The notes below the pieces were generated by a model. The model was not told where the DNA came from, ran no database searches, and was given only the letters and a program-made list of their open reading frames with translations. Made by a program: the position numbers and the translations under genes. Shown here in pieces: positions 3,835 to 57,349 of a stretch of 64,000 nt of DNA. The stretch's first letter is position 1. Every line of letters begins with the position of its first letter. Location: the NCBI GenBank assembly GCA_013336225.1, contig JAAXUC010000004.1, positions 32,421 through 96,420 on the forward strand, given 5' to 3'. The DNA comes from Candidatus Moraniibacteriota bacterium. GTDB lineage: Bacteria; Patescibacteriota; Minisyncoccia; Moranbacterales; GWC2-37-73.

Positions 3835-3907
3835 GCCACCCTAGCTCAACGGTAGAGCTACTGTTTTGTAAACAGTAGGTTATCGGTTCAAATCCGGTGG
3901 GTGGCTC
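3835..3907 (+). tRNA. tRNA-Thr (anticodon UGU)
   Basis: Manual cloverleaf: acceptor GCCACCC/GGGTGGC, D-stem GCTC/GAGC, anticodon stem ACTGT/ACAGT with loop TTTGTAA, T-loop TTCAAAT. Confidence 0.85.
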
Positions 3908-4020
3908 ATAAATGGAAAATTTCGAATTATGAATTTTGAATTTCGAATGAATTGTTGATGTTTTAAACATTTTGTCATTGGAAATTTTTTAAAAATTAAA
4001 AATTGGAAATTGAAAATTTG
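3908..4020. repeat. AT-rich intergenic repeat module (cgaattatgaattttgaatttcgaat ... ttttaaacatt)
   Basis: The cgaattatgaattttgaatttcgaat block is shared with 60212-60245; the spacer between the two tRNAs also contains aaaatt/gaaatt repeats. Confidence 0.5.
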
Positions 4021-4043
4021 AGCCCGTAAGGGCGATGCATTTC

Positions 4044-4126
4044 GGGTAGTTACCAAAGCGGTCAACTGGATCTGGCTGTAAACCAGACGGCGTAAGCCTT
4101 CGGGGGTTCGAGTCCCTCACTGCCCA
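4044..4126 (+). tRNA. tRNA-Tyr (anticodon GUA, long variable arm)
   Basis: Acceptor GGGTAGT/ACTGCCC, anticodon stem TCTGG/CCAGA with loop CTGTAAA, long variable arm CGGCGTAAGCCTTCG, T-arm GGGGG-TTCGAGT-CCCTC. Confidence 0.85.
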
Positions 4127-4139
4127 CATATGATATTTT

Positions 4140-4170
4140 AAAGACACCCTTTTGGGTGTCTTTAAAATTT
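4140..4170 (+). terminator. rho-independent terminator (aaagacaccc-tttt-gggtgtcttt + A/T tail)
   Basis: Perfect 10-bp stem immediately 3' of tRNA-Tyr. Confidence 0.6.
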
Positions 4171-4178
4171 TATTTGTA

Positions 4179-4400
4179 GTGGGCAGTGAGGGACTCGAAC
4201 GGGTCGAAGTGAGCTAGAAATTTTCAGTAGAAAATTCGCAGCGAACGCCGATGAATGAGAGCGTGCGAGCATTCAGCGCGACCCTGGGCAAGGAGCGAAG
4301 GCGACGCGTAAATCCCTCACTCTTTGTGCAGTGAGGAACTCGAACCGGCAGAAGCGAGCATTAAGCAAAGGCGAGATGGGTGCAGGAATATGACTTAAAT
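4179..4400. repeat. tRNA-Tyr-linked repeat: two inverted copies of the tRNA-Tyr 3' end (4179-4200 and 4332-4356) flanking a conserved core (cgatgaatgagagcgtgcgagcattcagcgc...ggcaaggagcg)
   Basis: 4179-4200 gtgggcagtgagggactcgaac is the exact reverse complement of the tRNA-Tyr T-arm/acceptor 3' end; the core is near-identical to cores at 57657-57700 and 57846-57890. Confidence 0.7.
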
Positions 4401-4494
4401 ACGTGATATTTCAGCTATGGACAAAAATCCAATAAAGCCTTATACTGCTTGATAGTTGCTGATTTCAGTATCTAATCCATATCGCTACCAAAAT

Positions 4495-4567
4495 GCCGTT
4501 GTAGCTCAGTTGGTAGAGCACATCCTTGGTAGGGATGAGGTCTGCGGTCCGATTCCGCACAACGGCT
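4495..4567 (+). tRNA. tRNA-Thr (anticodon GGU)
   Basis: Acceptor GCCGTTG/CAACGGC, anticodon stem CATCC/GGATG with loop TTGGTAG, T-stem TGCGG/CCGCA with atypical T-loop TCCGATT. Confidence 0.8.
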
Positions 4568-4686
4568 CAGGTTTGATAAATTAAAAGATTTTAAAATAAG
4601 TTTCTATTTTCATTGTTTTAAGCCAGAAACAAATGAACATATGAACTAATGACAATTGTATGGCAACAAAGACAAAGGAGAATTTA

Positions 4687-4824
4687 GTGAAACTTAAATG
4701 CAGTGAATGCAAAGAGATCAACTATTACACTTCAAGAAATAAGAAGAAGATCAAAGAAAAGCTTGAGCTCAACAAGTATTGCAAAAAATGTCGCAAGCAC
4801 ACTGAACATAAGGAAATGAAATAA
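4687..4824 (+). CDS. rpmG: 50S ribosomal protein L33
   Basis: Below the 60-aa ORF-track cutoff. [45 protein letters not shown] aligns with B. subtilis L33 (CTECGERNYISKKNK...KKYC). GTG start at 4687 sits 6 nt after AAGGAG; an in-frame ATG at 4660 would add 9 aa. Confidence 0.85.
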
Positions 4825-4832
4825 CCTTTAAA

Positions 4833-4858
4833 GGGGCGGGTTTTCCCCGCCCCTTTAT
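4833..4858 (+). terminator. rho-independent terminator (aaaggggcggg-tttt-cccgcccctttat)
   Basis: GC-rich 10-bp stem plus T-rich tail directly after the rpmG stop. Confidence 0.6.
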
Positions 4859-4862
4859 ATTT

Positions 4863-4933
4863 GCGGGATTCGTATAGTGGTAGTACGTCGGTCTCCAAAA
4901 CCGTTGGCGTAGGTTCGATTCCTACATCCCGTG
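4863..4933 (+). tRNA. tRNA-Trp (anticodon CCA)
   Basis: Acceptor GCGGGAT/ATCCCGT (G1-U72 wobble), anticodon loop CTCCAAA, T-arm GTAGG-TTCGATT-CCTAC. Confidence 0.8.
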
Positions 4934-5096
4934 CATGCAGCAATAAAAACAGATACTTAATTAAATTAGGTACCTGTTTTTATTTATTGTTAACATTCTT
5001 TTTTTGTATCAGTTTATTTTGATTATATTTTGTTTGGATAATATGCTAGGATGAATTTTGGGTGAATTATTCTAAGAAAATATCAAAATAAAAATA

Positions 5097-11297: not shown

Positions 11298-11396
11298 AGT
11301 TGTCTCACTTTTTTAAAGCGTTCCACGTTGTTGGAACGCTTTTTGCATAAAAATCCATCCCTTTTATTAAAAATGATTGTGCTTGGAAAAATTAAA

Positions 11397-11430
11397 ACCC
11401 GGTATAGACTCTGTCTATACCGGGTTTAGA
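11397..11430. terminator. bidirectional terminator (aaaacccggtatagac-tctg-tctataccgggttt)
   Basis: 13-bp near-perfect stem between convergent glyQS and the PEP-CTERM gene. Confidence 0.65.
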
Positions 11431-11452: not shown

Positions 11453-12082
11453 TTATGCAGTCATTTTGTTTGTGCGGCGTTTCCCGTACACTGCAATCCC
11501 AAGCAGGCCAACTGAAAACAGTGCCATGGTTCCTGGTTCAGGAACGGGTGCAACCGAAGTCATGTTTATGCCAATTTCGTTTAAACTGAAATCATTCCAG
11601 CAGAGATCTCCAGCCAGGACACTTACTTGAATCAGGCCATCCTTGAGATATTCTTCAAGTCCAGCTTGCTTGAGGTCAATGGTGAATATTTTGCTGGCAG
11701 GACTCATTTGAAACCAGGAAAAATTTCCCAAAAATAGAGTCTTGTCCAGGAGTTTCGTGTCTCCATCCATTGCTCCGGAAGAAATCACAATTCTTTCTGG
11801 CAAAAGATCTGCAGAAGAAATTGTGACTCCCAGGAGCGCAGACGTGATGCTTGAGCCTGGCAAAAATCCAAGAGCATCAGTTGTGGCTCCATTGGTTTGG
11901 TTTACGAAGTCAAAGTTAAAGACCGCGGACTGACCCTGCGATAGTGTTACACTTTGATTGCCATTTAAAAAAGCTTCCTGTTGAGTCATTGGCAGTGCGA
12001 ATGCCATCCCAGCTGTCATCAACATCATCAACATTACAATTAAAAAGTTTTTCATTAAAAATCTCCTTTTCGGTTGAACCAC
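11453..12082 (-). CDS. secreted protein with C-terminal PEP-CTERM sorting signal
   Basis: Signal peptide with basic n-region (KRRFLMKNFLIVMLMMLMTAGMAFA); C-terminus VPEPGTMALFSVGLLGIAVYGKRRTNKMTA = PEP motif + TM helix + basic cluster. Confidence 0.65.
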   Translation of the reverse strand: MVQPKRRFLMKNFLIVMLMMLMTAGMAFALPMTQQEAFLNGNQSVTLSQGQSAVFNFDFVNQTNGATTDALGFLPGSSITSALLGVTISSADLLPERIVISSGAMDGDTKLLDKTLFLGNFSWFQMSPASKIFTIDLKQAGLEEYLKDGLIQVSVLAGDLCWNDFSLNEIGINMTSVAPVPEPGTMALFSVGLLGIAVYGKRRTNKMTA

Positions 12083-12316: not shown

Positions 12317-12829
12317 TCACCGTGCTCGAAATGAAGTCCTATTGGTTCTCTTCATTAGGTTATATTGCTTGCCATTGAAAATGTAATATTCTGTTATTCC
12401 TGGCTGGAAGTTTCCATCAGGATATTCCATTATCATGTCATTTATTCCATTGTGCTTGCCTGGCATGAAAATAAGTTGGTCAGGATATTCTGGGCCAAAT
12501 ATTTTTGAAAAACTTTTTTTGTCATCGCTTCTTTTGTAAACCCATACATCACATCTTTTTGCTCCAGTGCAACAGCCCTCGGTTGATTCGGCTTCCACTT
12601 GAAACAGATTGTTGTTTTCATTGTCATCACCAAGATGCAAGGCTTCGACTTTGATCATCTTATTTATGTTGCCACCGGCATTTTTGATGCATGTTTTGCT
12701 AAGTTCCTTGCTGTGAATCATCTGCTGGGCGATTTTCTTGATGATTGCCTCATTTTCTGCTGCAAGGCAGTTGCTGGACAGAATATTGAGGCCAAACAAC
12801 GCAATAAGGATGGTGATAATTTTTCTCAT
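12317..12829 (-). CDS. hypothetical secreted protein
   Basis: Cleavable signal peptide MRKIITILIALFGLNILSSNCLAAE; four Cys; no recognisable domain. Confidence 0.45.
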   Translation of the reverse strand: MRKIITILIALFGLNILSSNCLAAENEAIIKKIAQQMIHSKELSKTCIKNAGGNINKMIKVEALHLGDDNENNNLFQVEAESTEGCCTGAKRCDVWVYKRSDDKKSFSKIFGPEYPDQLIFMPGKHNGINDMIMEYPDGNFQPGITEYYIFNGKQYNLMKRTNRTSFRAR

Positions 12830-12997: not shown

Positions 12998-13059
12998 TTA
13001 CACGTCAAGCACAGTGTGTTTGATTGATGGAAAATCCAGAAAGAAAGGGGGTGAGTTCA

Positions 13060-13173
13060 ATGGGTAAGGGCAGCGGTTCAGGAGGTCATGGAGGCGGCAA
13101 TGCTGGTTCTGGCGGTCAAAGTGGCGGCGGTGGCGGAAGTGCAGGCGGCGGAAGTGGCAGTCGTGGAAAATAG
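13060..13173 (+). CDS. small glycine-rich peptide (37 aa: MGKGSGSGGHGGGNAGSGGQSGGGGGSAGGGSGSRGK)
   Basis: Below the ORF-track cutoff. Strong SD aaagaaagggggtga 7 nt upstream of ATG, and a rho-independent terminator 30 nt downstream. The leader is identical over 15 nt to the leader of the 32839 small ORF. Confidence 0.5.
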   Translation: MGKGSGSGGHGGGNAGSGGQSGGGGGSAGGGSGSRGK

Positions 13174-13202
13174 TAAAAAAGTTGAATGTTCCATGATATG
13201 CA

Positions 13203-13236
13203 AAAAAGAAGCTCTTTTCGAAACCGAAAAGAGCTT
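13203..13236 (+). terminator. rho-independent terminator (aagaagctcttttcg-aaac-cgaaaagagcttc + T)
   Basis: 14-bp stem after the Gly-rich ORF. Confidence 0.6.
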
Positions 13237-13310
13237 CACTTTATTTACGAATGAGTAATAGTAGAAAAGACTTGATATTCTTTTGTATTAAACAGTGGTA
13301 TGATTAAGAT

Positions 13311-14579: not shown

Positions 14580-14689
14580 AAATTCATAAAATGCGCTATT
14601 TAAATTTAAGAAGGGATTGAATGATGATGTGAATGTGGAAAATGAGATTTTGTGATATAATAAAAACATCAATTAAAAAAATTTTTATT

Positions 14690-15307
14690 ATGGATAAAAA
14701 ATCAAAAATATTGCTTTGGGTGATTGCTCTTTTGATTGTTGGCAGTGTTGGTGCAACTTATTGGCGCATCATGATTAAAAAAGATTACATCATTGAGTCT
14801 CAGATTGATTGTGATCCATATGAAAACAAATGTTTCGTGTGGGAGTGTGATCCTGAGTCGTCAGTGGAAGGAGAAGCTTGCACGGGCGACCCTGAAAGTG
14901 ACATTTGGTATTTTCAAGTGGCGAAAAGAAATGCAGCAAACATTTCGCTTTGTGATCCTGAAACTGATGAAAATTGTGATCCGTGGACTTGCGCTGAAGA
15001 TGAAAAGGATTGTAGTGAAATTTTTTGCGATGAGGCAAATATGGAAGAGCAATTTGCCGCATCTTGCAATGATCCTGCTCAATATGTGATTGACAATCCA
15101 ATTGAAGAAGAAGGCGATTGCGCTGAAGATGATGAAGAATGCTTGGCTATTGAAGAGGAGTCTGCCTGTGAGGAGGGTGATGAGGAATGCTTGGCAGCAG
15201 AGGAGGAGGCTGTCTGTGAAGAAGGTGACGAGGAATGTGTCAATGCTGAATCTGCCACAGATGAAGATGTCGCGGCTGATGTTGTTGATGAAGATATAGC
15301 TCAATAG
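14690..15307 (+). CDS. membrane-anchored, highly acidic Cys-rich repeat protein
   Basis: N-terminal TM helix ILLWVIALLIVGSVGATYW, then an ectodomain with 18 Cys and repeated E-rich units (EEECLAIEEESACEEGDEECLAAEEEAVCEEGDEEC). Start taken at Met20 of the track ORF. Confidence 0.5.
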   Translation: MDKKSKILLWVIALLIVGSVGATYWRIMIKKDYIIESQIDCDPYENKCFVWECDPESSVEGEACTGDPESDIWYFQVAKRNAANISLCDPETDENCDPWTCAEDEKDCSEIFCDEANMEEQFAASCNDPAQYVIDNPIEEEGDCAEDDEECLAIEEESACEEGDEECLAAEEEAVCEEGDEECVNAESATDEDVAADVVDEDIAQ

Positions 15308-15475: not shown

Positions 15476-16240
15476 TTGAAAAATGCACTAGTGGATGGAT
15501 TCAGAGCCTTCCTTGATATCAAGGAAGAAGAGGAGATCGTGTCAGCAGCAGTTGCAAAAAAAGCTTCTTTTTTGGCAGCTGGCAGAGCAGTGTTTGCTTT
15601 TACTGATTGGATCATTGCAGCTGGACTTGGCGCATTTGTTTTTTGGATGCAGTCAAAAAACTTTTCCTCTGTAAATGTTTGGCTGGCAACATTTTTGTAT
15701 GATCTTGTTGCCTCGGCTGCATTTTTCTTTTTGAGTGACATGACAAAGTGTGATTTCACATTTGGTCAATCATTCAGAAGAGTCGCTGACAGTCTTTCCG
15801 GAAATGGATTTTTTGGGAAAATTTTTGCTGGCATGCTCCTTTTGGGAGTATCAGCAAAGGCCATCATCTGGGAAGGTCCGGAAGTTATCTGCTTTCTTTT
15901 TCAAAAAGAATTGAAAAGTAGGCGTAACATCTGGCTGGCATTGATTGTCTTGTCGGCACTGCAGGGATTGTTTGGTGCTTGGCTCTATTCTACAGGCTAT
16001 GAATTATGGAGAGCATTTGCACCAAAGTTGGTTGATTCCCATCTTGTTTTAATGGGAATAGCAACGTTTGCCATTGTTGCAATCATTGTTGCGCTGGCAA
16101 AGAAGATTGTGAAATTAGTAACAAAAGCGATTCGTTTTTTCTTTGAATGTTCAAAAAAACAGCAGTTAATGATGGTCTTTCAATTGGCAGTATTTATATT
16201 TTGCACAATGCTGCTTTTACGGAAAATTATATTTACTTGA
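15476..16240 (+). CDS. hypothetical polytopic membrane protein
   Basis: TTG start after GGGAGGTG; 6-7 predicted TM helices; no motif recognised. Confidence 0.4.
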   Translation: MKNALVDGFRAFLDIKEEEEIVSAAVAKKASFLAAGRAVFAFTDWIIAAGLGAFVFWMQSKNFSSVNVWLATFLYDLVASAAFFFLSDMTKCDFTFGQSFRRVADSLSGNGFFGKIFAGMLLLGVSAKAIIWEGPEVICFLFQKELKSRRNIWLALIVLSALQGLFGAWLYSTGYELWRAFAPKLVDSHLVLMGIATFAIVAIIVALAKKIVKLVTKAIRFFFECSKKQQLMMVFQLAVFIFCTMLLLRKIIFT

Positions 16241-18244: not shown

Positions 18245-18449
18245 GGATTATCATTTGAAAATGCGTTTTTTACTGTGTGACAATGTTTCATCTTCTTGTT
18301 GATCTGCAAAAATTGTTATTTCTTGTGCATGAAAATGGAATTGTTTTCCTTTCTCAAAAGTTTGTTTTAGTGTATAATTTGATTAGTAAATGTTTTTTTA
18401 TTTGAACTTAATTGATGATGATAAATTTGAATTAATAGCAGCTAATATT

Positions 18450-19001
18450 ATGAAAAAGACAAAAGAAGGGAGAAGTGTTTTTTCATGGATGAATCCTTGT
18501 TTGGAGGTTAGATCAATATCTAAGTATGGCAATAATGGAAAAGGAATTTTTACATTAAAAGAAATAAAAAAAGGTGAGGAGTTGGCTGTCTTTGGTGGTT
18601 ATATTGTAGCAGTTAAAGATCTGATTGATTTACCAGAGAAATACAGAGATCTCGGATTTCAGATATCTGATAAATTTTCAATAACTAGTAAGAATATAAA
18701 TGAAGACTCTGATAATTTTAATCATAGTTGTGATCCTAATGCTGGGATATGTGGACAAATATTTTTAGTTTCAATGAGGGATATTAAAAAAGGAGAGGAA
18801 GTTGTTTTTGATTATGCTATGGTTTTAAGTAAAAGTACTGGTGCTGAAAAATATGAAATTAAATGTTTATGTGGATCAGTAAAATGTAGAGGTAAGATAA
18901 CTGAGAATGATTGGAAGATGCCAGAATTACAAAAAAAATACAATGGATACTTCCAACATTTCTTGCAGGAAAAAATTAATAAAATAAATACAAAAAAATG
19001 A
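18450..19001 (+). CDS. SET-domain protein (putative protein lysine methyltransferase) with post-SET Cys cluster
   Basis: SET signature FNHSCDPNA, EEVVFDY, and post-SET CLCGSVKCRG. Start taken at internal ATG 18450; stop overlaps the HK start (ATGA). Confidence 0.8.
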   Translation: MKKTKEGRSVFSWMNPCLEVRSISKYGNNGKGIFTLKEIKKGEELAVFGGYIVAVKDLIDLPEKYRDLGFQISDKFSITSKNINEDSDNFNHSCDPNAGICGQIFLVSMRDIKKGEEVVFDYAMVLSKSTGAEKYEIKCLCGSVKCRGKITENDWKMPELQKKYNGYFQHFLQEKINKINTKK

Positions 19002-25678: not shown

Positions 25679-26707
25679 ATGCTTATTGAATCAAAAATTA
25701 TTGGTATAAATATTAAAAAGCAAAGGCTTTTGAATAAGATGTCACAAGTTGATGTTGGAAATCTTTTAAGTACTACAAAATCTTATATATGTAGCTTGGA
25801 GCGTGGTAATAGGAACCCTTCTTTGAAAACTTTAAAAAAAATAGCACTTATCTTCAATGTACCCGTAGAAATTCTTTTGAGGGGTAATGATATAGCTGAT
25901 TCAAAATATCAAAAGATAAGGGATGATAAATTTCAGCAATTTGAGAAGAAGATAAAAAATTGGAATATTACTTCACAGAAAAAATGGTGCAATTTTTTCA
26001 TCGATGAAGAAAGTATGTTTTTCAATAAAAATAGAATTAATCAGATAAAGACTATAGTGAAAAGATATGCTGATAATAAAAACTTATCAGTTATAGATTC
26101 GTCATGTGGAACTGGAAGACTTACGGAATTACTTGCAAAAGATGGCTTTAAAAAAATATATGGAATTGATGCCAATCCATATGTTGTAGAGATAGCAAGA
26201 GAGCAAGCAATACAAAAAGCATTAATGATAAACTATGATATATCTATTCCGCCAAGTTTTGAAAAAAAAGTATTTGATGTGGTTTTTAACATAGGAACAT
26301 CGATAGGGTATTTGCAAAGTGAGGAGGATAATTTTGAGAATATCAGAAGAATAAGTTGTTTAGTCAGTAGGGGTGGAAAAATAATAATTGAGGCAGTTAA
26401 TCCTATTGGGATATTGCGTAATTTTAGTTCAAGCGAAACACTTAAATTGGATGGAAAGAAGCGATCATATCAACGTTTTTTTGATGTAAGGAGTTCAACA
26501 AGTATTGAAAATGTTATTGATACTTATGATAATAAAAAACAAATTGAATATTTTAGCAGTATTCGATTATTTTTTCCCCACGAATTAATATCTATTTTTT
26601 TGAATAGTGGGTTTATTTTAGTTGATCTGCTTGATAATAATTTAACCAGGAAAAATACCGTTAATTCACCTAGGCTATGGTATATTTTTCAGAAAAAAAA
26701 TGTTTAA
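25679..26707 (+). CDS. HTH-XRE (Cro/C1-type) DNA-binding domain fused to a class I SAM-dependent methyltransferase domain
   Basis: N-terminus QVDVGNLLSTTKSYICSLERGNRNPSLKTLKKIALIFNVPVEILL = XRE HTH; C-terminal motif I VIDSSCGTGRLT, post-I GIDANP, motif II FDVVFN. Confidence 0.7.
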   Translation: MLIESKIIGINIKKQRLLNKMSQVDVGNLLSTTKSYICSLERGNRNPSLKTLKKIALIFNVPVEILLRGNDIADSKYQKIRDDKFQQFEKKIKNWNITSQKKWCNFFIDEESMFFNKNRINQIKTIVKRYADNKNLSVIDSSCGTGRLTELLAKDGFKKIYGIDANPYVVEIAREQAIQKALMINYDISIPPSFEKKVFDVVFNIGTSIGYLQSEEDNFENIRRISCLVSRGGKIIIEAVNPIGILRNFSSSETLKLDGKKRSYQRFFDVRSSTSIENVIDTYDNKKQIEYFSSIRLFFPHELISIFLNSGFILVDLLDNNLTRKNTVNSPRLWYIFQKKNV

Positions 26708-27797
26708 TTTTATTGGTAAAATGCAATTTCATCAGAATAAAATAAATTCTCTCCTTGAGGATAGAATTGAAAATTCACTAACTACTGTCTTTATTGATCT
26801 GGTTAGCGGTGTTTGTAATCATAAGTGTGTGTTTTGTGATGGAAATTTTAATCCAATAAAAAAGCTAATTTTTTCCAAGAGTAAGTTGCTTGAAATAGCT
26901 AATGATCTTGGTGATATGAATGTTGATTCCGTGATTATGGTTGGCGAGGGTGGAGAATCATTATTGAATCCCAATTTTTGTTTTTTTTCAAAGAAATTGT
27001 TGGATAAAAAAATTCATCTTGGAATGTATACGAACGGTGGCATGTTGAATAAGAAAAATCTCGGTGTTATTTCAAGGTTTGATTTTATTAGAATTTCTTT
27101 GGACTCTGGATCATCGATAACTCATCAGCAAGTGCATGGGTATGAGGATAGAGATGATTTTAATAAGATATTTGAATCAATTGAATATTTAAGAAAAAGA
27201 AGCAAAATACAAATAGGATCATCATTCTTGCTATTACCACAGAACGTAGATGATTTATATGAGGCTGCAAAGAGATTAAAGGAGGCTGGTGCGAATTATA
27301 TAGAGGTTAGGCCAGCATATTTAAGGGATTACGGCTTTGATTTAAAGGCTTTTAAATCGATAAAGGATCGTTTCTTATACCAATTGGATAAAATGGACGT
27401 CCTAAATGATGATAGCTTTAAGGTGATTATTAATAATCAGTTAAAGGAGATAATTAAAAATAAAAAAACAATTCGTGGTGATGTTACAAGGTTGAAAAGA
27501 TCAAGAAATTGTTTAACTTGTAGGTTGAGATTAGTTGTGAGTCCAACGGGATGTTATATTTGTCCACCAAATAGAAGTAAAGAAGATTTTCGCATAGGTG
27601 ATATTTGGAATAATCCTTTACGTAGCATTTGGAATAATAGGGAACATTTGGATAAGATTAATAAAAAATGTGATTTAAAATGTCCTTACCATAAGCAAAA
27701 TAATTTTTTAATTAAATTAAAGAAAAATAATTTAATTTTTGATGATAAGTGCTTGCTGCCAGCTGGCAAATTAATTACTCAGAAAAATTTTCTATAA
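26700..27797 (+). CDS. radical SAM enzyme with C-terminal SPASM/twitch-like Cys-rich domain
   Basis: CX3CX2C (VSGVCNHKCVFCDG); C-terminal CLTCRLRL...GCYICPP...GDIWNNPLRSIWNN...CDLKCPYH resembles SPASM auxiliary-cluster motifs; overlaps the upstream gene by 8 nt. Confidence 0.8.
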   Translation: MFNFIGKMQFHQNKINSLLEDRIENSLTTVFIDLVSGVCNHKCVFCDGNFNPIKKLIFSKSKLLEIANDLGDMNVDSVIMVGEGGESLLNPNFCFFSKKLLDKKIHLGMYTNGGMLNKKNLGVISRFDFIRISLDSGSSITHQQVHGYEDRDDFNKIFESIEYLRKRSKIQIGSSFLLLPQNVDDLYEAAKRLKEAGANYIEVRPAYLRDYGFDLKAFKSIKDRFLYQLDKMDVLNDDSFKVIINNQLKEIIKNKKTIRGDVTRLKRSRNCLTCRLRLVVSPTGCYICPPNRSKEDFRIGDIWNNPLRSIWNNREHLDKINKKCDLKCPYHKQNNFLIKLKKNNLIFDDKCLLPAGKLITQKNFL

Positions 27798-27801
27798 AAA
27801 T

Positions 27802-28899
27802 ATGATAAAACCTATAAACTTTACAAAATATTATAAAGAAATTTTATCAGAATTGATGCTAGCATTTAGCGAGTTTATTTTAAGTGGGCAATATATCGGA
27901 GGTAAATTGGTGGAAAAATTTGAAGATAAAGTTAAAAAATATTTGGGTGCTAAACATGCAATAGGATGTAAGAGCGGAACACATGCTCTTCAGCTTGCGC
28001 TTTTAGCTGCTGGTGTTGAGAAAGGTGATGAAGTTATTACGGTTGCTAATACATATTACGCAACGGTATATGCAATTACTGCTGTAGGAGCAACGCCAAT
28101 TTTTTGTGATATTTTACCAGAAAATGGGCAAATTGATCATAATAAAATTGAAGCTAAAATTACTAAAAAAACAAAGGTTATTTTGCCAGTTCATTTGTAT
28201 GGGATACCTGTTAATTTGGGGGAAATTAGAAAAATTTGCAAAAAATATAAGTTAATATTAATTGAGGATTGTTCTCATGCATTTGGAACAAGGTTAAATG
28301 GTGAATATATAGGAAGTGATTCAGATTTTGGATGCTTTAGTATGTATCCAACAAAAAATCTCGGTGCTTTTGGTGATGCTGGATTTATAACAACAAAAAA
28401 TAAGAAATATGAAAGCAAGATTCGCGAATTGATTTATTTGACAGATGCTAAGCGGGTAAAATTTAATCCAAAAGCTATTCATGCTATGCTGGATCCTCTT
28501 CAGGCAGCCTTGCTTTTGGTAATGCTAGATAAGATGGATCAAGCACGCAAAGATAGAATTGAGAGAGCGGATGAATATAGGAAAAATCTAGAGGAATATA
28601 TCAGGATAAGTAAGGTTGGAAGTGATAGTGTTGTGAATCCTCACATGTTCCCAATTTTTATTAAAAATAGGAACAAGTTGATAAAATTTTTGGCAGATTC
28701 CTCTGTGCATGTGCAAGTTCATTATCCAACCAATCTGCATTGTCTGTCACAGTTTGGATCATACGCCAAAGGGTATCTCCCAGAAACGGAGAGGCACAAT
28801 AGAGAAGAGGTCAGTCTTTCTGTTCATCCATCTGTTTCAATATCTGAAGTTAAGAAAATATGTAAATTAATTAAGCAGTATGTCGAAATTAACAAATAG
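27802..28899 (+). CDS. DegT/DnrJ/EryC1/StrS-family PLP-dependent (sugar) aminotransferase
   Basis: Family N-terminus GGKLVEKFEDKVKKYLGAKHAIGCKSGTHALQLAL; PLP-Lys motif FSMYPTKNLGAFGDAGFI. Confidence 0.8.
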   Translation: MIKPINFTKYYKEILSELMLAFSEFILSGQYIGGKLVEKFEDKVKKYLGAKHAIGCKSGTHALQLALLAAGVEKGDEVITVANTYYATVYAITAVGATPIFCDILPENGQIDHNKIEAKITKKTKVILPVHLYGIPVNLGEIRKICKKYKLILIEDCSHAFGTRLNGEYIGSDSDFGCFSMYPTKNLGAFGDAGFITTKNKKYESKIRELIYLTDAKRVKFNPKAIHAMLDPLQAALLLVMLDKMDQARKDRIERADEYRKNLEEYIRISKVGSDSVVNPHMFPIFIKNRNKLIKFLADSSVHVQVHYPTNLHCLSQFGSYAKGYLPETERHNREEVSLSVHPSVSISEVKKICKLIKQYVEINK

Positions 28900-29884
28900 A
28901 AAGAAAATTGTTGTTTTGGTTCTTGGATTTAGGGCGCTTTCTTTTATTAAGAAGGGTTATTTAGCGTCAATTATTAAGGCTGCCGATAAAATAAAAAATG
29001 CAAAAGTTGATATTGTTTATCTTGATAATTATTCAAGAGATGGATCAGTACCATACATCATGAAAAATTATAAAAATATCGATCTATTATCTGCGACTGA
29101 AAATTATTTTTACTGTAAGGGTGTAAATGTCGGTTTGCAATTTTCATATCAAAAATATAGACCAGATTACTTTATGCTTGTAGATGCTGATAATCCATGT
29201 GAAGAGAGCGCTTATGGTAAGTTGATTGATTTTGCAAATAAAAATGCAAAAGTGGGAATTGTTCAGCCGCTAGTTAAGGGTCTAAGTGATTCAAATAGAG
29301 TATATTCATGTGGGCACGTATATGAAAATGGTATTTCATGTAGGCCATTAAGAGAAATCCCAAAAAACAAAAAAATATTATTAAATCTTCAAAGTTGTTC
29401 AATATCATCAACACTTGTCAAAACAAAGGTTTTTGAAAAATGTGGTTTGCTTGATCCTATTTTCAAGATTTATTATGAAAGTAGCGACTTATCATTCAGA
29501 GCAAGAAAAGCGGGCTTCTTGTGTGCTTGCCATGTTGAGGCTGTGTGTTTTAATGAGGGTGCAAAAGTTTCAAAAACTGATAATTTTCATGAGGGTTATT
29601 TTAGAAATAGAAACAATTTAATTTTCTGGAAAAAACATGATAATGAAAAATATGAAATTTTAAAAAAGATATATCAAGAAAGGCATAAGCAATTAAATGT
29701 AAAATTGGCTAATTTGAAATATGTCACAGACATGGAAGAGGAGAGTGAGCGAAGGGGGATTGAGGACGGCATAAAAATTACTAAAAAAATGGTTGCAGGT
29801 ATCAAGAATGAAGAGAGGATAGATAAATTTGATAAAACTGATGCTATTGTGATTCAGGAAGCATGCAAAAATAATGAAAAATAA
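28880..29884 (+). CDS. family 2 glycosyltransferase
   Basis: GT2 motifs DIVYLDNYSRDGS, DxD (LVDADN), and YESSDLSFRARKAGF (ED-DLS-R-R-AG). Confidence 0.65.
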   Translation: MSKLTNRKKIVVLVLGFRALSFIKKGYLASIIKAADKIKNAKVDIVYLDNYSRDGSVPYIMKNYKNIDLLSATENYFYCKGVNVGLQFSYQKYRPDYFMLVDADNPCEESAYGKLIDFANKNAKVGIVQPLVKGLSDSNRVYSCGHVYENGISCRPLREIPKNKKILLNLQSCSISSTLVKTKVFEKCGLLDPIFKIYYESSDLSFRARKAGFLCACHVEAVCFNEGAKVSKTDNFHEGYFRNRNNLIFWKKHDNEKYEILKKIYQERHKQLNVKLANLKYVTDMEEESERRGIEDGIKITKKMVAGIKNEERIDKFDKTDAIVIQEACKNNEK

Positions 29885-32150
29885 CATGTCAAAATCATTT
29901 CATCTTTTCTTATTGAAATTTTTCTATTCCATGTTATGCATTAAGGATTATTTCATGATGGGTTTTGAAATCAAAAAGCTTAAGAAGATAGCCAGCAAAT
30001 CAGTAGACACATTGCAATTTAATGATAAATTGAATGAAAATATCGTTGTTGGTGTGGACGAAAAAGAAGGATATTATATTGATTCAAAAAAGCCATCTTA
30101 TTACAAGAAGCACTTTAATGATTTTTTTCATAATGATTTGTATGGTAAATATAGATCAGATGAAAATATTATTTTAAGTACTGGTGCTCTTAATCAGGAT
30201 GAATTTTGTCTTCCGCGTTCGTTGAAATTTGCCATAAGCTATGCTCTTACGAGAAATTGGTATGGTTATTCTTGCAGCTTAGGTAGGGAATCAGCTCGCT
30301 TGGCTATAGCTGATCTGGAAAACCATAAAATTAATAGCAATATCTACAATGAAAATAATGTAGCATTGATACAGGGTGTTACGGCCGGATTATTTCACTT
30401 ATTATCATTTTTGAAAGAGAGAGAGGAAGATGGTAACTTCGGCATTTTGACGCATTATCCAACTTACGTGCCTTTTGCAGCAACTTGCGAAAAAATCGCA
30501 CCCACAAAAATAATAAATTTTTTTGGTGATAAAAAATTTAGCATCGAAGCGTTTAAGCGAAATATAGATAAAACAACAAAGGTGATTTTATTGCTTGGAG
30601 ATTTTAATCCATTAGGAAAACTTATGGATGTTTCTTTTGTTAATGAATTGATTGATATTTGTGATGAGAAGTCGATATATCTTATTATTGATGAGGCTGG
30701 TTCAAAATATCCGGAAAATAATTGGAATAATTTGAAAAATAGTGATTTCTTAATCAGGATGGATAGCTTATCTAAAAAAGTTTCAGTTCCTGGTATGAAA
30801 TTGGGATATTTTATTGCAAATGAGGAGATAATCTCTGAATTTTATGAGCGAGCATCAACAACCTATGGTGGCCCATCATCTTTTTTTTACATCCTACAAG
30901 AACTTGATGCAAGGTTCGATCTTTTTTTCCGCAAGGGTTTGCTTAAGATTGGATCAGGAGAGTTGGCATTATTTGATAAAAATTACAATCTAGGATTATT
31001 TTTTTTGAATATTCTCTATGGTCAATATATTAAAAATAAACATTTTTTTGAGTTAAAAATAAAACAGCATCGCAGTATCGTTATTGATAAGCTTATCAGT
31101 CATCATCCTCAATTGGTGAAAAAAATAATCATGCCAGAAACTGGTATTAATATTTTTTTGCAATTAGATGTCGATTACGGCAGTTATGAATTTTTCAGAA
31201 AATTGATAGTTGAAAAAAGGACAGCAGTTTTTCCGGGACTTTGTTCTGCTACAGATAAAGAATGCTGGATAAGAATAACATGTGGTGTTGATAAAAAAAC
31301 TTTGCAAACTGGTTTGGATAATTTGGTTGATTTTCTTAAGACTGAGTGGATCAAGAAACAAATACAAAAAGAGCCATTTTTTGAAAAATTACTTCTTGAT
31401 TTTGGTCAGTATGGGAGTTATGGTTACTTGTCATTTTTTGAACACATTTATGATGTTCAAAAAAATGGAATGAAAATATTGGATATTTTTGAGCTGAAAA
31501 CTAGAAGAAAGTTGGATCGTGATTTACTTAGGGAGGTGATATTTTGTCATGATGCTGGGAAAGTTGTGAGTGTGATAGTGTTTCGAATTATGAGAATTTT
31601 GCAACTTCAAAAAAAATATGGAAAAATCCCATTTTCAGTTTTTTCTAAATTGAGAGACGAGGATTTACTGTTTTTGCGAAAGGAAATAGTGGATTGTTTT
31701 GTTTTTACAAAAGAATATTTTTACGAAATGTTTCCATTTTTGCATGATTATTCTGAATTAATGAATTTAGATAGTGATAAATATCTTAAAGATACCGTCT
31801 TTACTGAGAAGATGCTTCAGCTTGCTCTGGATAAATATCCAAATTATGAGAAAAAAATAGAAGAAATGAAATTTATAATATTGAACAATTCCGCAAAAAT
31901 TAATATCAATAATTTAATGATTGGATATAATCCGTATATTTTCATTTTGGATTTTGCAGATAAAATTGCTGATTATAATCTTCCAGAAGAACCAACTCTG
32001 GCAAAAATAGATGAACTTTTGAGAAAAAAGAAAAAATATGTAATTAAACGATATTGTCATAATAATCGATCCATGGAAGCTATTGTCCATTGCGAGTTTA
32101 GTCATCTGTATGAGCTAATTAGGGAATCAAGAGTTTTTCATAAATGTTAA
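29874..32150 (+). CDS. fusion protein: class I/II PLP aminotransferase domain + C-terminal putative HD-type phosphohydrolase domain
   Basis: Aminotransferase PLP-Lys motif SLSKKVSVPGMKLGYFIAN (cf. SFSKxxxxxGxRxGY); C-terminal H...HDAGK (FEHIYD...VIFCHDAGKV) resembles HD-domain motifs I and II. Confidence 0.55.
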   Translation: MKNNMSKSFHLFLLKFFYSMLCIKDYFMMGFEIKKLKKIASKSVDTLQFNDKLNENIVVGVDEKEGYYIDSKKPSYYKKHFNDFFHNDLYGKYRSDENIILSTGALNQDEFCLPRSLKFAISYALTRNWYGYSCSLGRESARLAIADLENHKINSNIYNENNVALIQGVTAGLFHLLSFLKEREEDGNFGILTHYPTYVPFAATCEKIAPTKIINFFGDKKFSIEAFKRNIDKTTKVILLLGDFNPLGKLMDVSFVNELIDICDEKSIYLIIDEAGSKYPENNWNNLKNSDFLIRMDSLSKKVSVPGMKLGYFIANEEIISEFYERASTTYGGPSSFFYILQELDARFDLFFRKGLLKIGSGELALFDKNYNLGLFFLNILYGQYIKNKHFFELKIKQHRSIVIDKLISHHPQLVKKIIMPETGINIFLQLDVDYGSYEFFRKLIVEKRTAVFPGLCSATDKECWIRITCGVDKKTLQTGLDNLVDFLKTEWIKKQIQKEPFFEKLLLDFGQYGSYGYLSFFEHIYDVQKNGMKILDIFELKTRRKLDRDLLREVIFCHDAGKVVSVIVFRIMRILQLQKKYGKIPFSVFSKLRDEDLLFLRKEIVDCFVFTKEYFYEMFPFLHDYSELMNLDSDKYLKDTVFTEKMLQLALDKYPNYEKKIEEMKFIILNNSAKININNLMIGYNPYIFILDFADKIADYNLPEEPTLAKIDELLRKKKKYVIKRYCHNNRSMEAIVHCEFSHLYELIRESRVFHKC

Positions 32151-32166
32151 TATAATTTTAAAAAGT

Positions 32167-32748
32167 ATGATCAAGATGGAATATTTTATTAAAAAAATTG
32201 TTGATATATTAAGCAAAAAAGGCTTGGAAGATAAGGAAATTTCCAATATCATGCTTACTTCCAATGAAACACTTATTAATGAGATAGCTGATGTCATTTT
32301 TGATTTTATGAATCGTGGAAAAAAAATAATATACAATGTGCAAGTTGATTATTCTAAAAATGTGGAGGAGATGGTTGAGATTACAATGCATGAATGGGCT
32401 AATGAAGACATCACCTCGGAACATTTCCTTAATATCAGGGGTAAATCCGCAGAAGTGAGTGTTGAGCTTATACATTTCAATCGAAGCATCCTAAGCGATG
32501 ATGCACTTCTTGAGATGAGTGCTATGGGTTATCGTGCGGCTAATATGCAGGAATTCTTGGCATTTGGTGCGAAATATCCTGATCTGCAACGCAAATTTCC
32601 AATTGTGGGATTGGGGTCAGTTTGGCACAGTGAAGACAGTCATCTTGTTGCATATATGAGCTGGGGAGCTTCTGGCCGTTACCTCCATTTGTGGCATCTT
32701 GATCTTGTTTGGGGTGACGGTTGTCGTTTTGCTGCCGTTAAAGAATAA
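32167..32748 (+). CDS. hypothetical protein (193 aa), last gene of the AT-rich operon
   Basis: No motif recognised; distinctive HLWHLDLVWGDGC C-terminus. Confidence 0.35.
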   Translation: MIKMEYFIKKIVDILSKKGLEDKEISNIMLTSNETLINEIADVIFDFMNRGKKIIYNVQVDYSKNVEEMVEITMHEWANEDITSEHFLNIRGKSAEVSVELIHFNRSILSDDALLEMSAMGYRAANMQEFLAFGAKYPDLQRKFPIVGLGSVWHSEDSHLVAYMSWGASGRYLHLWHLDLVWGDGCRFAAVKE

Positions 32749-42702: not shown

Positions 42703-43323
42703 TTGAATTTAAATATGAATAGTCCTCAATTTAAAGGTGGAGGTGTTGCTATTTTCAACAAAAAAATAAACTTCAATGAATTTAGGGCTGTCGATGCACG
42801 TTCATTGCTTGGGCTGTATGTTTCGCAGACCTTGCTGTTCTTGGGAATTTTGTTGATATTGTTCAACAATGCGGACATTGTTGAACCAGGAAATTATCTG
42901 GGTTCATATGGTTGGCTCACTGTCACTGTTTTTTCAATCGGACTTCTGATTAATTTTGTTTCTATTCCGTTTTTATATTTTTCAAGCCTCAGTCATTTTA
43001 AAAGAGAAAATGAATTTTGGGATAAGGAGACTTTCTGGATTTTGCCGTTGTTCTTTTTTGGAACATTCTTTTTGTATAGCAGTCAGATTTACATGGCATT
43101 GATTTTGCTGGCGCTTTCAGTTTTAGTAATCATGATAATTCATGTGATATTCGTCATTGAGGCTCGTCAAATTGTCAGGAGAAATTCCGATCGCACACTT
43201 TCCAATTGTGGACAATATCTCATGACTTTGAAATATTTGAGCGCCTATTACTTTCTGTTGTTGGGACTGTTGATTTCGGTTAATCCGTTGGGATATTTTT
43301 TCAATTGGATTCATCTATATTAA
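42703..43323 (+). CDS. hypothetical polytopic membrane protein
   Basis: Five hydrophobic helices; no motif recognised. Confidence 0.3.
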   Translation: MNLNMNSPQFKGGGVAIFNKKINFNEFRAVDARSLLGLYVSQTLLFLGILLILFNNADIVEPGNYLGSYGWLTVTVFSIGLLINFVSIPFLYFSSLSHFKRENEFWDKETFWILPLFFFGTFFLYSSQIYMALILLALSVLVIMIIHVIFVIEARQIVRRNSDRTLSNCGQYLMTLKYLSAYYFLLLGLLISVNPLGYFFNWIHLY

Positions 43324-50320: not shown

Positions 50321-50788
50321 ATGGTAGACGAAATTAAAAAAATTGAAGAACTTTTAGCTGCAGAATCTGGTGAAATTTCTGCAGAAACTGCTAGCGCAAC
50401 TGAAGCTGAAACAAAGAAGAAGAAAAAGAAGATCAAGCGACAAATCAGCAAAGGACAGGCACACATCAAATGCACCTACAACAATACAATGGTGATGATT
50501 TCTGATGCTAATGGCGCCATGCTTGGATGGTCAAGCTCTGGACTGCTTGGTTTCAAGGGAGCAAAGAAGGCAACTCCATATGCTGCAACTCAAGTTGTGC
50601 ATGATGTGACTGAGAAAGTGAAGAAATTTGGAATGCATGAGTTGGATGTTTTCGTGAGAGGAGTTGGCTCCGGACGAGAATCATCAATTCGCTCATTGGC
50701 CAACAAAGGTTTTGAACTTACTGCAATCAAAGATGTAACACCAATTCCTCATAATGGATGCAGAGCAAAGAAACCGAGACGAGTATAA
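50321..50788 (+). CDS. rpsK: 30S ribosomal protein S11 with ~25-aa acidic then K-rich N-terminal extension
   Basis: Core GQAHIKCTYNNTMVMISDANG...GFKGAKKATPYAA matches S11. Confidence 0.9.
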   Translation: MVDEIKKIEELLAAESGEISAETASATEAETKKKKKKIKRQISKGQAHIKCTYNNTMVMISDANGAMLGWSSSGLLGFKGAKKATPYAATQVVHDVTEKVKKFGMHELDVFVRGVGSGRESSIRSLANKGFELTAIKDVTPIPHNGCRAKKPRRV

Positions 50789-53386: not shown

Positions 53387-53977
53387 ATGGCAGTAAAAAA
53401 AGTAGAGAAAACTGAAAAAGTTGCAAAACCTAAAGCAGCAAAAGTTGTGAAACCAAAAGCTGAAAAGGTTGTTAAGGCTGCAAAAGTTGCTAAGGTTGTG
53501 AAAACTGCTGCTCCTGCTGAAGCTAAAGAAGCAACTGTGAAAGTTGAAAAAGTGGCAAAGGTTACAAAAAAAGAAAGCGGCGTATATTTCTATGCTGTTG
53601 GACGAAGAAAAACCTCTGTTGCTCAAGTCAGATTGTATGCAGATGAGAAAGCTACTGAAAATGAACTTGTGATCAATGATAAGAAGCTTAAGGATTATTT
53701 CCCAACAGTTTCACTTCAGAATAACATGCTGACACCGTTTAAGGCTGTTGGTTTGCACAACAAATTCCGCATGACAGTGCTTGTCCGTGGTGGAGGAGTG
53801 ACCGGTCAAGTTGAAGCTGTGCGATTGGGAATTGCTCGTGCGTTGGTTGTTTTCAATCCTGAACTCAAAAAGACTTTGAAAGATCTTGGACTCATGACTC
53901 GCGATGCTCGCGAAGTTGAACGAAAGAAAGCCGGTCTCAAGAAAGCTCGAAAAGCTCCACAATGGGCAAAACGATAG
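53387..53977 (+). CDS. rpsI: 30S ribosomal protein S9 with ~65-aa Lys/Ala-rich (histone H1-like) N-terminal extension
   Basis: Core YFYAVGRRKTSVAQVRL...GGGVTGQVEAVRLGIARAL...KKARKAPQWAKR. Confidence 0.9.
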   Translation: MAVKKVEKTEKVAKPKAAKVVKPKAEKVVKAAKVAKVVKTAAPAEAKEATVKVEKVAKVTKKESGVYFYAVGRRKTSVAQVRLYADEKATENELVINDKKLKDYFPTVSLQNNMLTPFKAVGLHNKFRMTVLVRGGGVTGQVEAVRLGIARALVVFNPELKKTLKDLGLMTRDAREVERKKAGLKKARKAPQWAKR

Positions 53978-56851: not shown

Positions 56852-57349
56852 ATGCAATTGGATAAAATCTTCATGAATTTCGGATTGGCGAGTGGCGCCG
56901 CAGAGATGGCAACATTGGCTTTGGTTTTGTTGGTGCTGAGCACTCTTTTTTGGGTTTTGATAGGCAGGTTTCGTTTGCACAATTTTTTGATAAACATCTA
57001 TATTTCACTGGCAATTTTGCAGTTTATTCCTAGTGATATCATGAGTTTTACTAGGAATTCTTCAATTTTATTTTTTCTGATCATTGTCACTTTGTTGACA
57101 CTTTTGAATCCATATTTGTTCGACATTCATCAGTCTGGCTCCGGACTGGCTCTCTGGCAAGTTTTCATGATGAGTTTTCTGGAGGTGTTACTTTTACTTA
57201 GTATCATCATATCTGCTCTTCCAGCTAAAGATGCTGCACTATACATCTCTAAAAACTCCTTGGTTTATTTCACTTATCCTTGGTGGAAATTGGCTTGGAT
57301 AATCGCACCTTTGGCATTCTTGGTGTTTGTTAAGAGACGCGATAAATAG
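56852..57349 (+). CDS. hypothetical polytopic membrane protein
   Basis: Four or five TM helices; no motif recognised. Confidence 0.35.
   Translation: MQLDKIFMNFGLASGAAEMATLALVLLVLSTLFWVLIGRFRLHNFLINIYISLAILQFIPSDIMSFTRNSSILFFLIIVTLLTLLNPYLFDIHQSGSGLALWQVFMMSFLEVLLLLSIIISALPAKDAALYISKNSLVYFTYPWWKLAWIIAPLAFLVFVKRRDK

Follow-up and report, generated by a model that had tools for sequence, protein, structure and literature searches.

A PEP-CTERM protein with a jelly-roll ectodomain encoded between core genes of a Candidatus Moranbacteria chromosome

Exosortases are marked by about eight transmembrane (TM) helices and by conserved Cys (…ACSG…), Arg and His residues. To our knowledge, the PEP motif has no known role other than being recognised by an exosortase. 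PEP-CTERM proteins have been described as limited to diderm (outer-membrane), EPS-producing bacteria (PMC1569441), and the first-pass annotation of the DNA studied here, which tied the signal to such organisms, agrees with that description. Genomes with an active system typically hold many PEP-CTERM genes (median 8), while those with two or fewer are treated as doubtful (PMC1569441). One such case is Chlorobium tepidum, for which Haft et al. 2006 reported one or two PEP-CTERM genes and no EpsH, possibly a degenerate system (PMC1569441). Sorting by this enzyme family also occurs in cells that have no outer membrane. The archaeosortase ArtA of Haloferax volcanii acts in such cells, where it removes the C-terminal helix of a surface protein and leaves the protein lipid-anchored (bioRxiv 10.1101/2023.06.07.544157).

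We analysed a 64-kb stretch of DNA (the window) from Candidatus Moranbacteria, which fall within the Parcubacteria group of the Patescibacteria. CPR bacteria, ultra-small and probably episymbiotic, are thought to be single-membraned, and their cells are generally held to be without an outer membrane. How they build their surface and attach to hosts is poorly understood. The searchable literature contained no report of an exosortase or of PEP-CTERM in CPR. One protein of the window nevertheless resembles the substrates of PEP-CTERM/exosortase (XrtA/EpsH) systems in its tripartite tail, N-terminal signal peptide, small size and apparently monocistronic gene. It differs from those systems in its host, a CPR bacterium and not a diderm EPS producer, and in being the product of the one such gene in 64 kb. 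Compared with the pDV locus of D. vulgaris, the window has no exosortase, no PrsK/PrsR/PrsT and no XrtA-type EPS locus, though it does hold an island of sugar-modification genes (DegT, GT2, radical SAM). The PGF-CTERM/ArtA system is a functional analogy, and offers the most plausible way for a CPR envelope to make use of a PEP-CTERM tail. It differs in its motif, which is PGF and not PEP, and in belonging to another domain of life; moreover, no archaeosortase-like gene was found in the sequence examined here.

The gene and its surroundings comprise the following features:

11453..12055, minus strand: CDS of the PEP-CTERM protein, 200 aa plus stop (from the ORF list, the sequence and full-length homologues)
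12063..12068, minus strand: Shine-Dalgarno site AAGGAG, 7 nt before the ATG at 12055 (read from the sequence)
11996..12055, minus strand: signal peptide, residues 1-20, MKNFLIVMLMMLMTAGMAFA, with an A-F-A cleavage motif, then LP
11552..11995, minus strand: ectodomain, residues 21-168, a jelly-roll beta-sandwich conserved in the family and covered by no Pfam/NCBIfam model
11474..11545, minus strand: PEP-CTERM sorting domain, residues 171-194, with VPEP, a Gly/Leu-rich TM helix and a KRR cluster
11395..11427, minus strand: intrinsic terminator downstream of the PEP-CTERM gene, a 15-bp stem followed by TAATTTTT (terminator scan and sequence)
12317..12829, minus strand: gene for a 170-aa secreted, Cys-containing protein, upstream of and co-oriented with the PEP-CTERM gene (ORF list)

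The listed ORF extends over 11453..12082 on the minus strand and reaches an alternative GTG at 12082, which gives a product of 209 aa. The ATG at 12055 is probably the true start, because it is the one preceded by AAGGAG at 7 nt and because its product then opens with the signal peptide. That peptide was judged by eye, from a hydrophobic N-terminal segment, a modelled helix at residues 2-15 and similar N-termini in homologues. With a Shine-Dalgarno site, a signal peptide and its own terminator, the gene looks real and expressed, and it is apparently monocistronic. Its GC content (43.9%, z = 1.3) and GC3 (42.8%, z = 1.2) lie inside the spread of the window genes.

Existing gene calls for this protein differ in size: 105 aa at NCBI, 188 aa in Logan and 200 aa for the ORF with the Shine-Dalgarno site. 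The NCBI protein NTW27123.1 starts at Met96 and is identical to residues 96-200 of the window protein, so this call lacks the signal peptide and covers only half of the conserved ectodomain. An exact look-up of the 200-aa and 209-aa products returned no record, and P0001 was likewise without one. The NCBI record with the matching sequence already carries a PEP-CTERM label, with Candidatus Moranbacteria as host, and belongs to a contig of 112,517 bp.

The first-pass annotation had described a complete PEP motif, TM helix and Arg-Lys cluster at the C-terminus, and this description stands. Read directly from the sequence, the C-terminus of the product of ORF 11453-12082 is ...VAPVPEPGTMALFSVGLLGIAVYGKRRTNKMTA. 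The tripartite tail, VPEP-GTMALFSVGLLGIAVYG-KRR, lies at the extreme C-terminus with six residues remaining to the stop, and the structure model of the tail has a helix at residues 174-199. The TIGR02595 model, which had been put forward as the check on this tail, scored 19.9-20.0 bits against the window protein, above its curated cut-off of 16, and PF07589 scored 29.3 bits against a cut-off of 20.7 (E = 8.5e-7). Among all window ORFs of at least 40 aa, this is the sole PEP-CTERM-like tail. LPXTG-like tails (LPXTG motif, spacer, TM helix and basic tail) were found neither in the window protein nor in any real window gene.

We searched for the family of this protein with an exhaustive phmmer run against 1.84 billion cluster representatives. 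The search matched 352 representatives at E <= 1e-3, 26 at <= 1e-10 and four at <= 1e-30, with a best E-value of 1.9e-51. A word-index protein search with the single sequence found no relatives, and tblastn of plasmids with one family member as query found nothing. The better phmmer matches are proteins of about 190-240 aa that align end to end, each with a signal peptide, a domain of about 150 residues and a PEP-CTERM tail. Motifs that recur in their ectodomains are E-x-F-L-G, F-x-F-D-L, S-S-x-D, D-G-N, I-D-L, D-G-K-F and N-D-F-R-I-D. In an alignment of 21 members, P172 of the PEP motif occupies one of only four invariant columns, and V171, E173 and P174 are each at least 90% conserved.

The best whole-protein models were NF038129, PepA (NF033554), EDSAP-1 (NF041538) and THxN (NF038125), which 19-20 of the 21 family members match at E < 1e-3; FxDxF (NF038126) is matched by five of the 21 at the same threshold. 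Scores were well under the respective cut-offs for NF038129 (28.5 vs 65), PepA (27.9 vs 80), EDSAP-1 (33.8 vs 100) and THxN (27.9 vs 85). When the signal peptide and tail were left off, none of 16 ectodomains had an NCBIfam or Pfam match at E <= 0.01. The likeness to the named PEP-CTERM families thus goes no further than the tail. Homology of the ectodomain to PepA or NF038129 was rejected, since the sub-threshold matches all vanish once the tail is removed. The ectodomain forms a separate, uncurated family. It was modelled with high confidence as a jelly-roll (pLDDT 91). Its likeness to jelly-roll CBM6/35/36/29 domains and to PNGase F-type beta-sandwiches is at the level of the fold only, with identities of 3-15%, and a Foldseek search of the PDB returned generic jelly-roll, CBM-like neighbours with TM-scores of only 0.3-0.5. 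The window protein had no sequence-level match to any PDB chain, and no binding residues were recognised in it.

We also looked at how the relatives are distributed over other genomes. The nearest homologues, P0002 and P0003, share 51% and 50% identity with the window protein in a four-sequence alignment. Both are encoded by tandem genes on one 4.7-kb contig, L082 (1362-1937 and 2156-2758). In P0003, the product of the upstream copy, the PEP motif is degenerate: VPESS replaces VPEPG, and the second Pro is lost. A further homologue, P0004 (37% identity), occurs on contigs L083-L085, where the gene order is the PEP-CTERM gene, a gene for a 123-aa coiled-coil protein and dus. Inspected by eye, the neighbours on these contigs are CPR-like: a Lys-rich, N-terminally anchored protein, a LytR_C-like 250-aa protein and a giant repetitive surface protein. 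Two adjacent L083 genes also have homologues in a further locus, L032 (glyS, M16, rsmI), which is syntenic with the CPR loci L002 and L005 and shares 55-61% identity with L002. From their neighbouring genes and the synteny of L032, contigs L082-L085 may be classed as CPR-like. L032 itself (CAYNEL010000021.1, 62% GC) is labelled 'uncultured Bdellovibrionales', probably through an error of taxonomic assignment.

No residue of the stretch APVPEPGT differs between the window protein, P0002 and P0004, despite overall identities of 51% and 37%. This suggests selection on the motif in these lineages. Considering that homologues occur on both L082 and L083-L085, the tail signal appears to be maintained in more than one CPR-like lineage. 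Other family members have different surroundings. P0005 is encoded at 56% GC beside a two-partner secretion system with an Omp85/ShlB transporter, which marks its host as a diderm. P0275 is surrounded by genes of pantothenate, cobalamin and c-di-AMP metabolism, a setting that suggests a free-living host with a larger genome. The family is most economically read as diderm-derived, with one sub-branch resident in CPR-like genomes, and horizontal transfer probably brought the gene into the CPR lineage.

A reduced, CPR-like genome had been proposed for the window from its sequence alone, and the host assignment bears this out: the matching NCBI protein comes from Candidatus Moranbacteria, and the glycyl-tRNA synthetase (GlyRS) encoded next to the PEP-CTERM gene is closest to those of CPR MAGs. 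This GlyRS is 86% identical to that of a Parcubacteria-group MAG, and 63-71% identical to those of MAGs labelled Falkowbacteria, Magasanikbacteria, Parcubacteria group, Patescibacteria group and Peregrinibacteria. The end of the PEP-CTERM gene and the glyS stop codon are 156 bp apart. Together with the gene for the 170-aa protein, which has no Pfam/NCBIfam match, the PEP-CTERM gene occupies, on the minus strand, the 2.0 kb that separate glyS from a gene for an M16 peptidase. In five CPR loci (L003, L006, L008, L009 and L010) the M16 peptidase gene follows directly after glyS, so the two-gene insert of the window is lineage-specific; L002 has a different gene, of 323 aa, at the same position. 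An island of recent transfer recognisable by composition was rejected at z = 1.3 for GC, and synteny nonetheless shows the lineage-specific insertion. A separately assembled Logan contig (run SRR11449212) carries identical GlyRS, PEP-CTERM, 170-aa, M16 peptidase and purD genes in the same order. The interval 13024-13237, which lies between the gene for the 170-aa protein and that for the M16 peptidase, holds a 49-aa ORF composed almost wholly of Gly and Ser (…GKGSGSGGHGGGNAGSGGQSGGGGGSAGGGSGSRGK) and, after it at 13208-13237, a perfect 13-bp bidirectional hairpin terminator.

We then asked whether the sequence at hand encodes an exosortase. The first-pass annotation had seen no obvious exosortase among the polytopic membrane proteins of the window and had singled out the ORFs at 15476-16240 and 42703-43323; profile searches and a motif scan came to the same result. 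Neither of these two ORFs nor a further membrane ORF of no assigned family, at 56852-57349, matched an exosortase family (PF09721, TIGR02602 or TIGR04178) in Pfam/NCBIfam searches at E <= 1, the matches obtained being weak and unrelated. An hhalign comparison of a 30-sequence XrtA alignment with the three ORFs gave probabilities of 0.3-0.8%, and the C[SAT]G motif (…ACSG… of exosortases) is absent from all three. The remaining polytopic proteins of the window are an MFS transporter, a 7TM histidine kinase, MraY and RseP.

For a wider search we used an XrtA HMM (run with --max on ORFs of at least 80 aa) based on the XrtA of the D. vulgaris pDV EPS locus and its collected homologues. This HMM found nothing below E = 1 in the 64-kb window, in about 80 glyS loci (about 1.3 Mb, mostly CPR), in 80 PEP-CTERM metagenome loci or in L082-L087. 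The flanking contigs L170 and L173 of the same organism (about 5 kb) yielded no exosortase candidate. Among 22 polytopic neighbours in the metagenome loci there were ordinary transporters and similar proteins, and no exosortase. The metagenome scan, done with the subfamily alignment, returned mostly tail-only matches. No PEP-CTERM tail was found in the other glyS loci, most of them CPR.

Several other features of the window were recorded along the way. The sugar-modification island is a low-GC region at 25679-32748 (28-33% against a gene mean of 38.7%) of sugar/glycan-modification genes, with no exosortase within. It encodes an HTH plus SAM-methyltransferase, a radical SAM enzyme, a DegT/DnrJ aminotransferase, a family 2 glycosyltransferase, a 758-aa aminotransferase-like protein and a 193-aa protein of no known family, and looks like a horizontally acquired surface-glycan cassette. 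The gene with the lowest GC of the window (27.9%, z = -2.6) encodes a SET-domain protein at 18390-19001 and overlaps by 4 nt the histidine kinase gene just downstream, whose product has an N-terminal 7TM sensor. The 224-aa protein encoded at 14633-15307 has a single membrane helix at its N-terminus and a tail, very acidic and rich in Cys, with repeated C-x-EEGDEEC-like motifs; no Pfam/NCBIfam match was found for it. In the ribosomal-protein cluster, the ORFs at 50321-50788 and 53387-53977 (155 and 196 aa) have long N-terminal extensions rich in Lys, Ala and Glu; their position and sequence suggest S11 and S9. Four tRNA genes (Thr-TGT, Tyr-GTA, Thr-GGT and Trp-CCA) occupy 1.1 kb at 3835-4934; the spacers between them, at 140-370 nt, are unusually long and contain no large ORF.

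Two readings would turn the PEP-CTERM protein into an artefact. The tail could be an ordinary C-terminal TM anchor that merely resembles a PEP-CTERM domain by chance, as the domain is just 24 residues long and of low complexity, and LPXTG tails are known among its noise matches (PMC1569441). Such a resemblance is extremely improbable here, where two independent curated HMMs score above their cut-offs and the protein is homologous over its whole length to a family with TIGR02595 matches in 17 of 21 sampled members and a nearly invariant PEP motif. The gene could instead belong to a diderm and have been joined to CPR sequence by the assembler or the binner. MAG labels are indeed sometimes wrong, as with L032, labelled Bdellovibrionales yet syntenic with CPR loci. 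Against this, the gene sits on one contig between the core genes glyS and M16 peptidase, only 156 bp from the glyS stop, and the identical arrangement recurs in the separately assembled Logan contig. Neither its GC nor its GC3 falls outside the range seen in the window genes, and its nearest homologues are also on CPR-like contigs. Chimerism or mis-binning is thus very unlikely, and even together the artefact readings carry only a slight probability. The identity and architecture of the window protein as a PEP-CTERM protein are secure, and we hold them with high confidence.

What becomes of the protein after export is a closer call. We read it as a small Sec-exported surface protein encoded in a CPR chromosome, and propose, giving this an even chance, that an exosortase sorts it. 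The signal peptide would be cleaved after export, and the C-terminal helix would hold the protein in the cytoplasmic membrane with the PEP motif at its outer face. A cysteine protease of the exosortase/archaeosortase family, encoded elsewhere in the genome as the first-pass annotation supposed, would then cut at the PEP motif and attach the ectodomain to a glycan or lipid acceptor at the surface. In an envelope that has no outer membrane, this would resemble the action of ArtA on PGF-CTERM S-layer proteins. On the cell surface the jelly-roll domain, with its CBM-like fold, may serve as an adhesin or as a matrix- or glycan-binding module. Sorting is favoured because APVPEPGT is conserved and because ArtA, a member of the exosortase family, works without an outer membrane. 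Speaking against it are the single substrate gene seen, the lack of an exosortase in the window, its flanks, and the glyS and metagenome loci, the degenerate motif of P0003, the original description of PEP-CTERM from outer-membrane bacteria only, and the want of any report from CPR in the searchable literature. The exosortase-dependent step itself is about an even bet. Alternatively, the signal could be orphaned or degenerate: the gene would have come from a diderm PEP-CTERM organism into a genome without an exosortase, where the uncleaved tail would act as a membrane anchor (type I topology) that displays the jelly-roll domain. The absence of an exosortase from the window and flanks fits this alternative, as do the single PEP-CTERM gene in 64 kb, the absence of others near further, mostly CPR, glyS loci, and the position of the gene in a lineage-specific insertion. 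The paralogue P0003 has lost the second Pro of its motif, and Haft et al. 2006 regarded genomes that lack EpsH and have just one or two PEP-CTERM genes as possibly degenerate (PMC1569441). However, APVPEPGT is fully kept at 37-51% identity, which is difficult to account for if no partner recognises the motif, except where the conservation came from separate, recent transfers. In addition, the sequence inspected amounts to about 6-7% of a genome of about 1 Mb. We consider an uncleaved, orphan tail a serious possibility, at somewhat below even probability.

The gene is already labelled PEP-CTERM in GenBank (as 105 aa), and the practical value of the finding is modest. The host phylum is one for which the searchable literature describes no such system, and the ectodomain family has no curated model. 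Beyond the single protein, we suggest tentatively, and at well short of an even chance, that some CPR bacteria (Moranbacteria and related Parcubacteria-like lineages) run exosortase-type sorting without an outer membrane and so fix a horizontally acquired jelly-roll adhesin to their own surface. If true, this could help an epibiont adhere to the polysaccharide matrix or floc of PEP-CTERM-producing hosts. The PEP-CTERM family, conserved in several CPR-like lineages, may extend exosortase-type sorting to a new envelope type and provide a handle on CPR surface biology; alternatively, it may be a clean natural case of a sorting signal that has outlived its enzyme.
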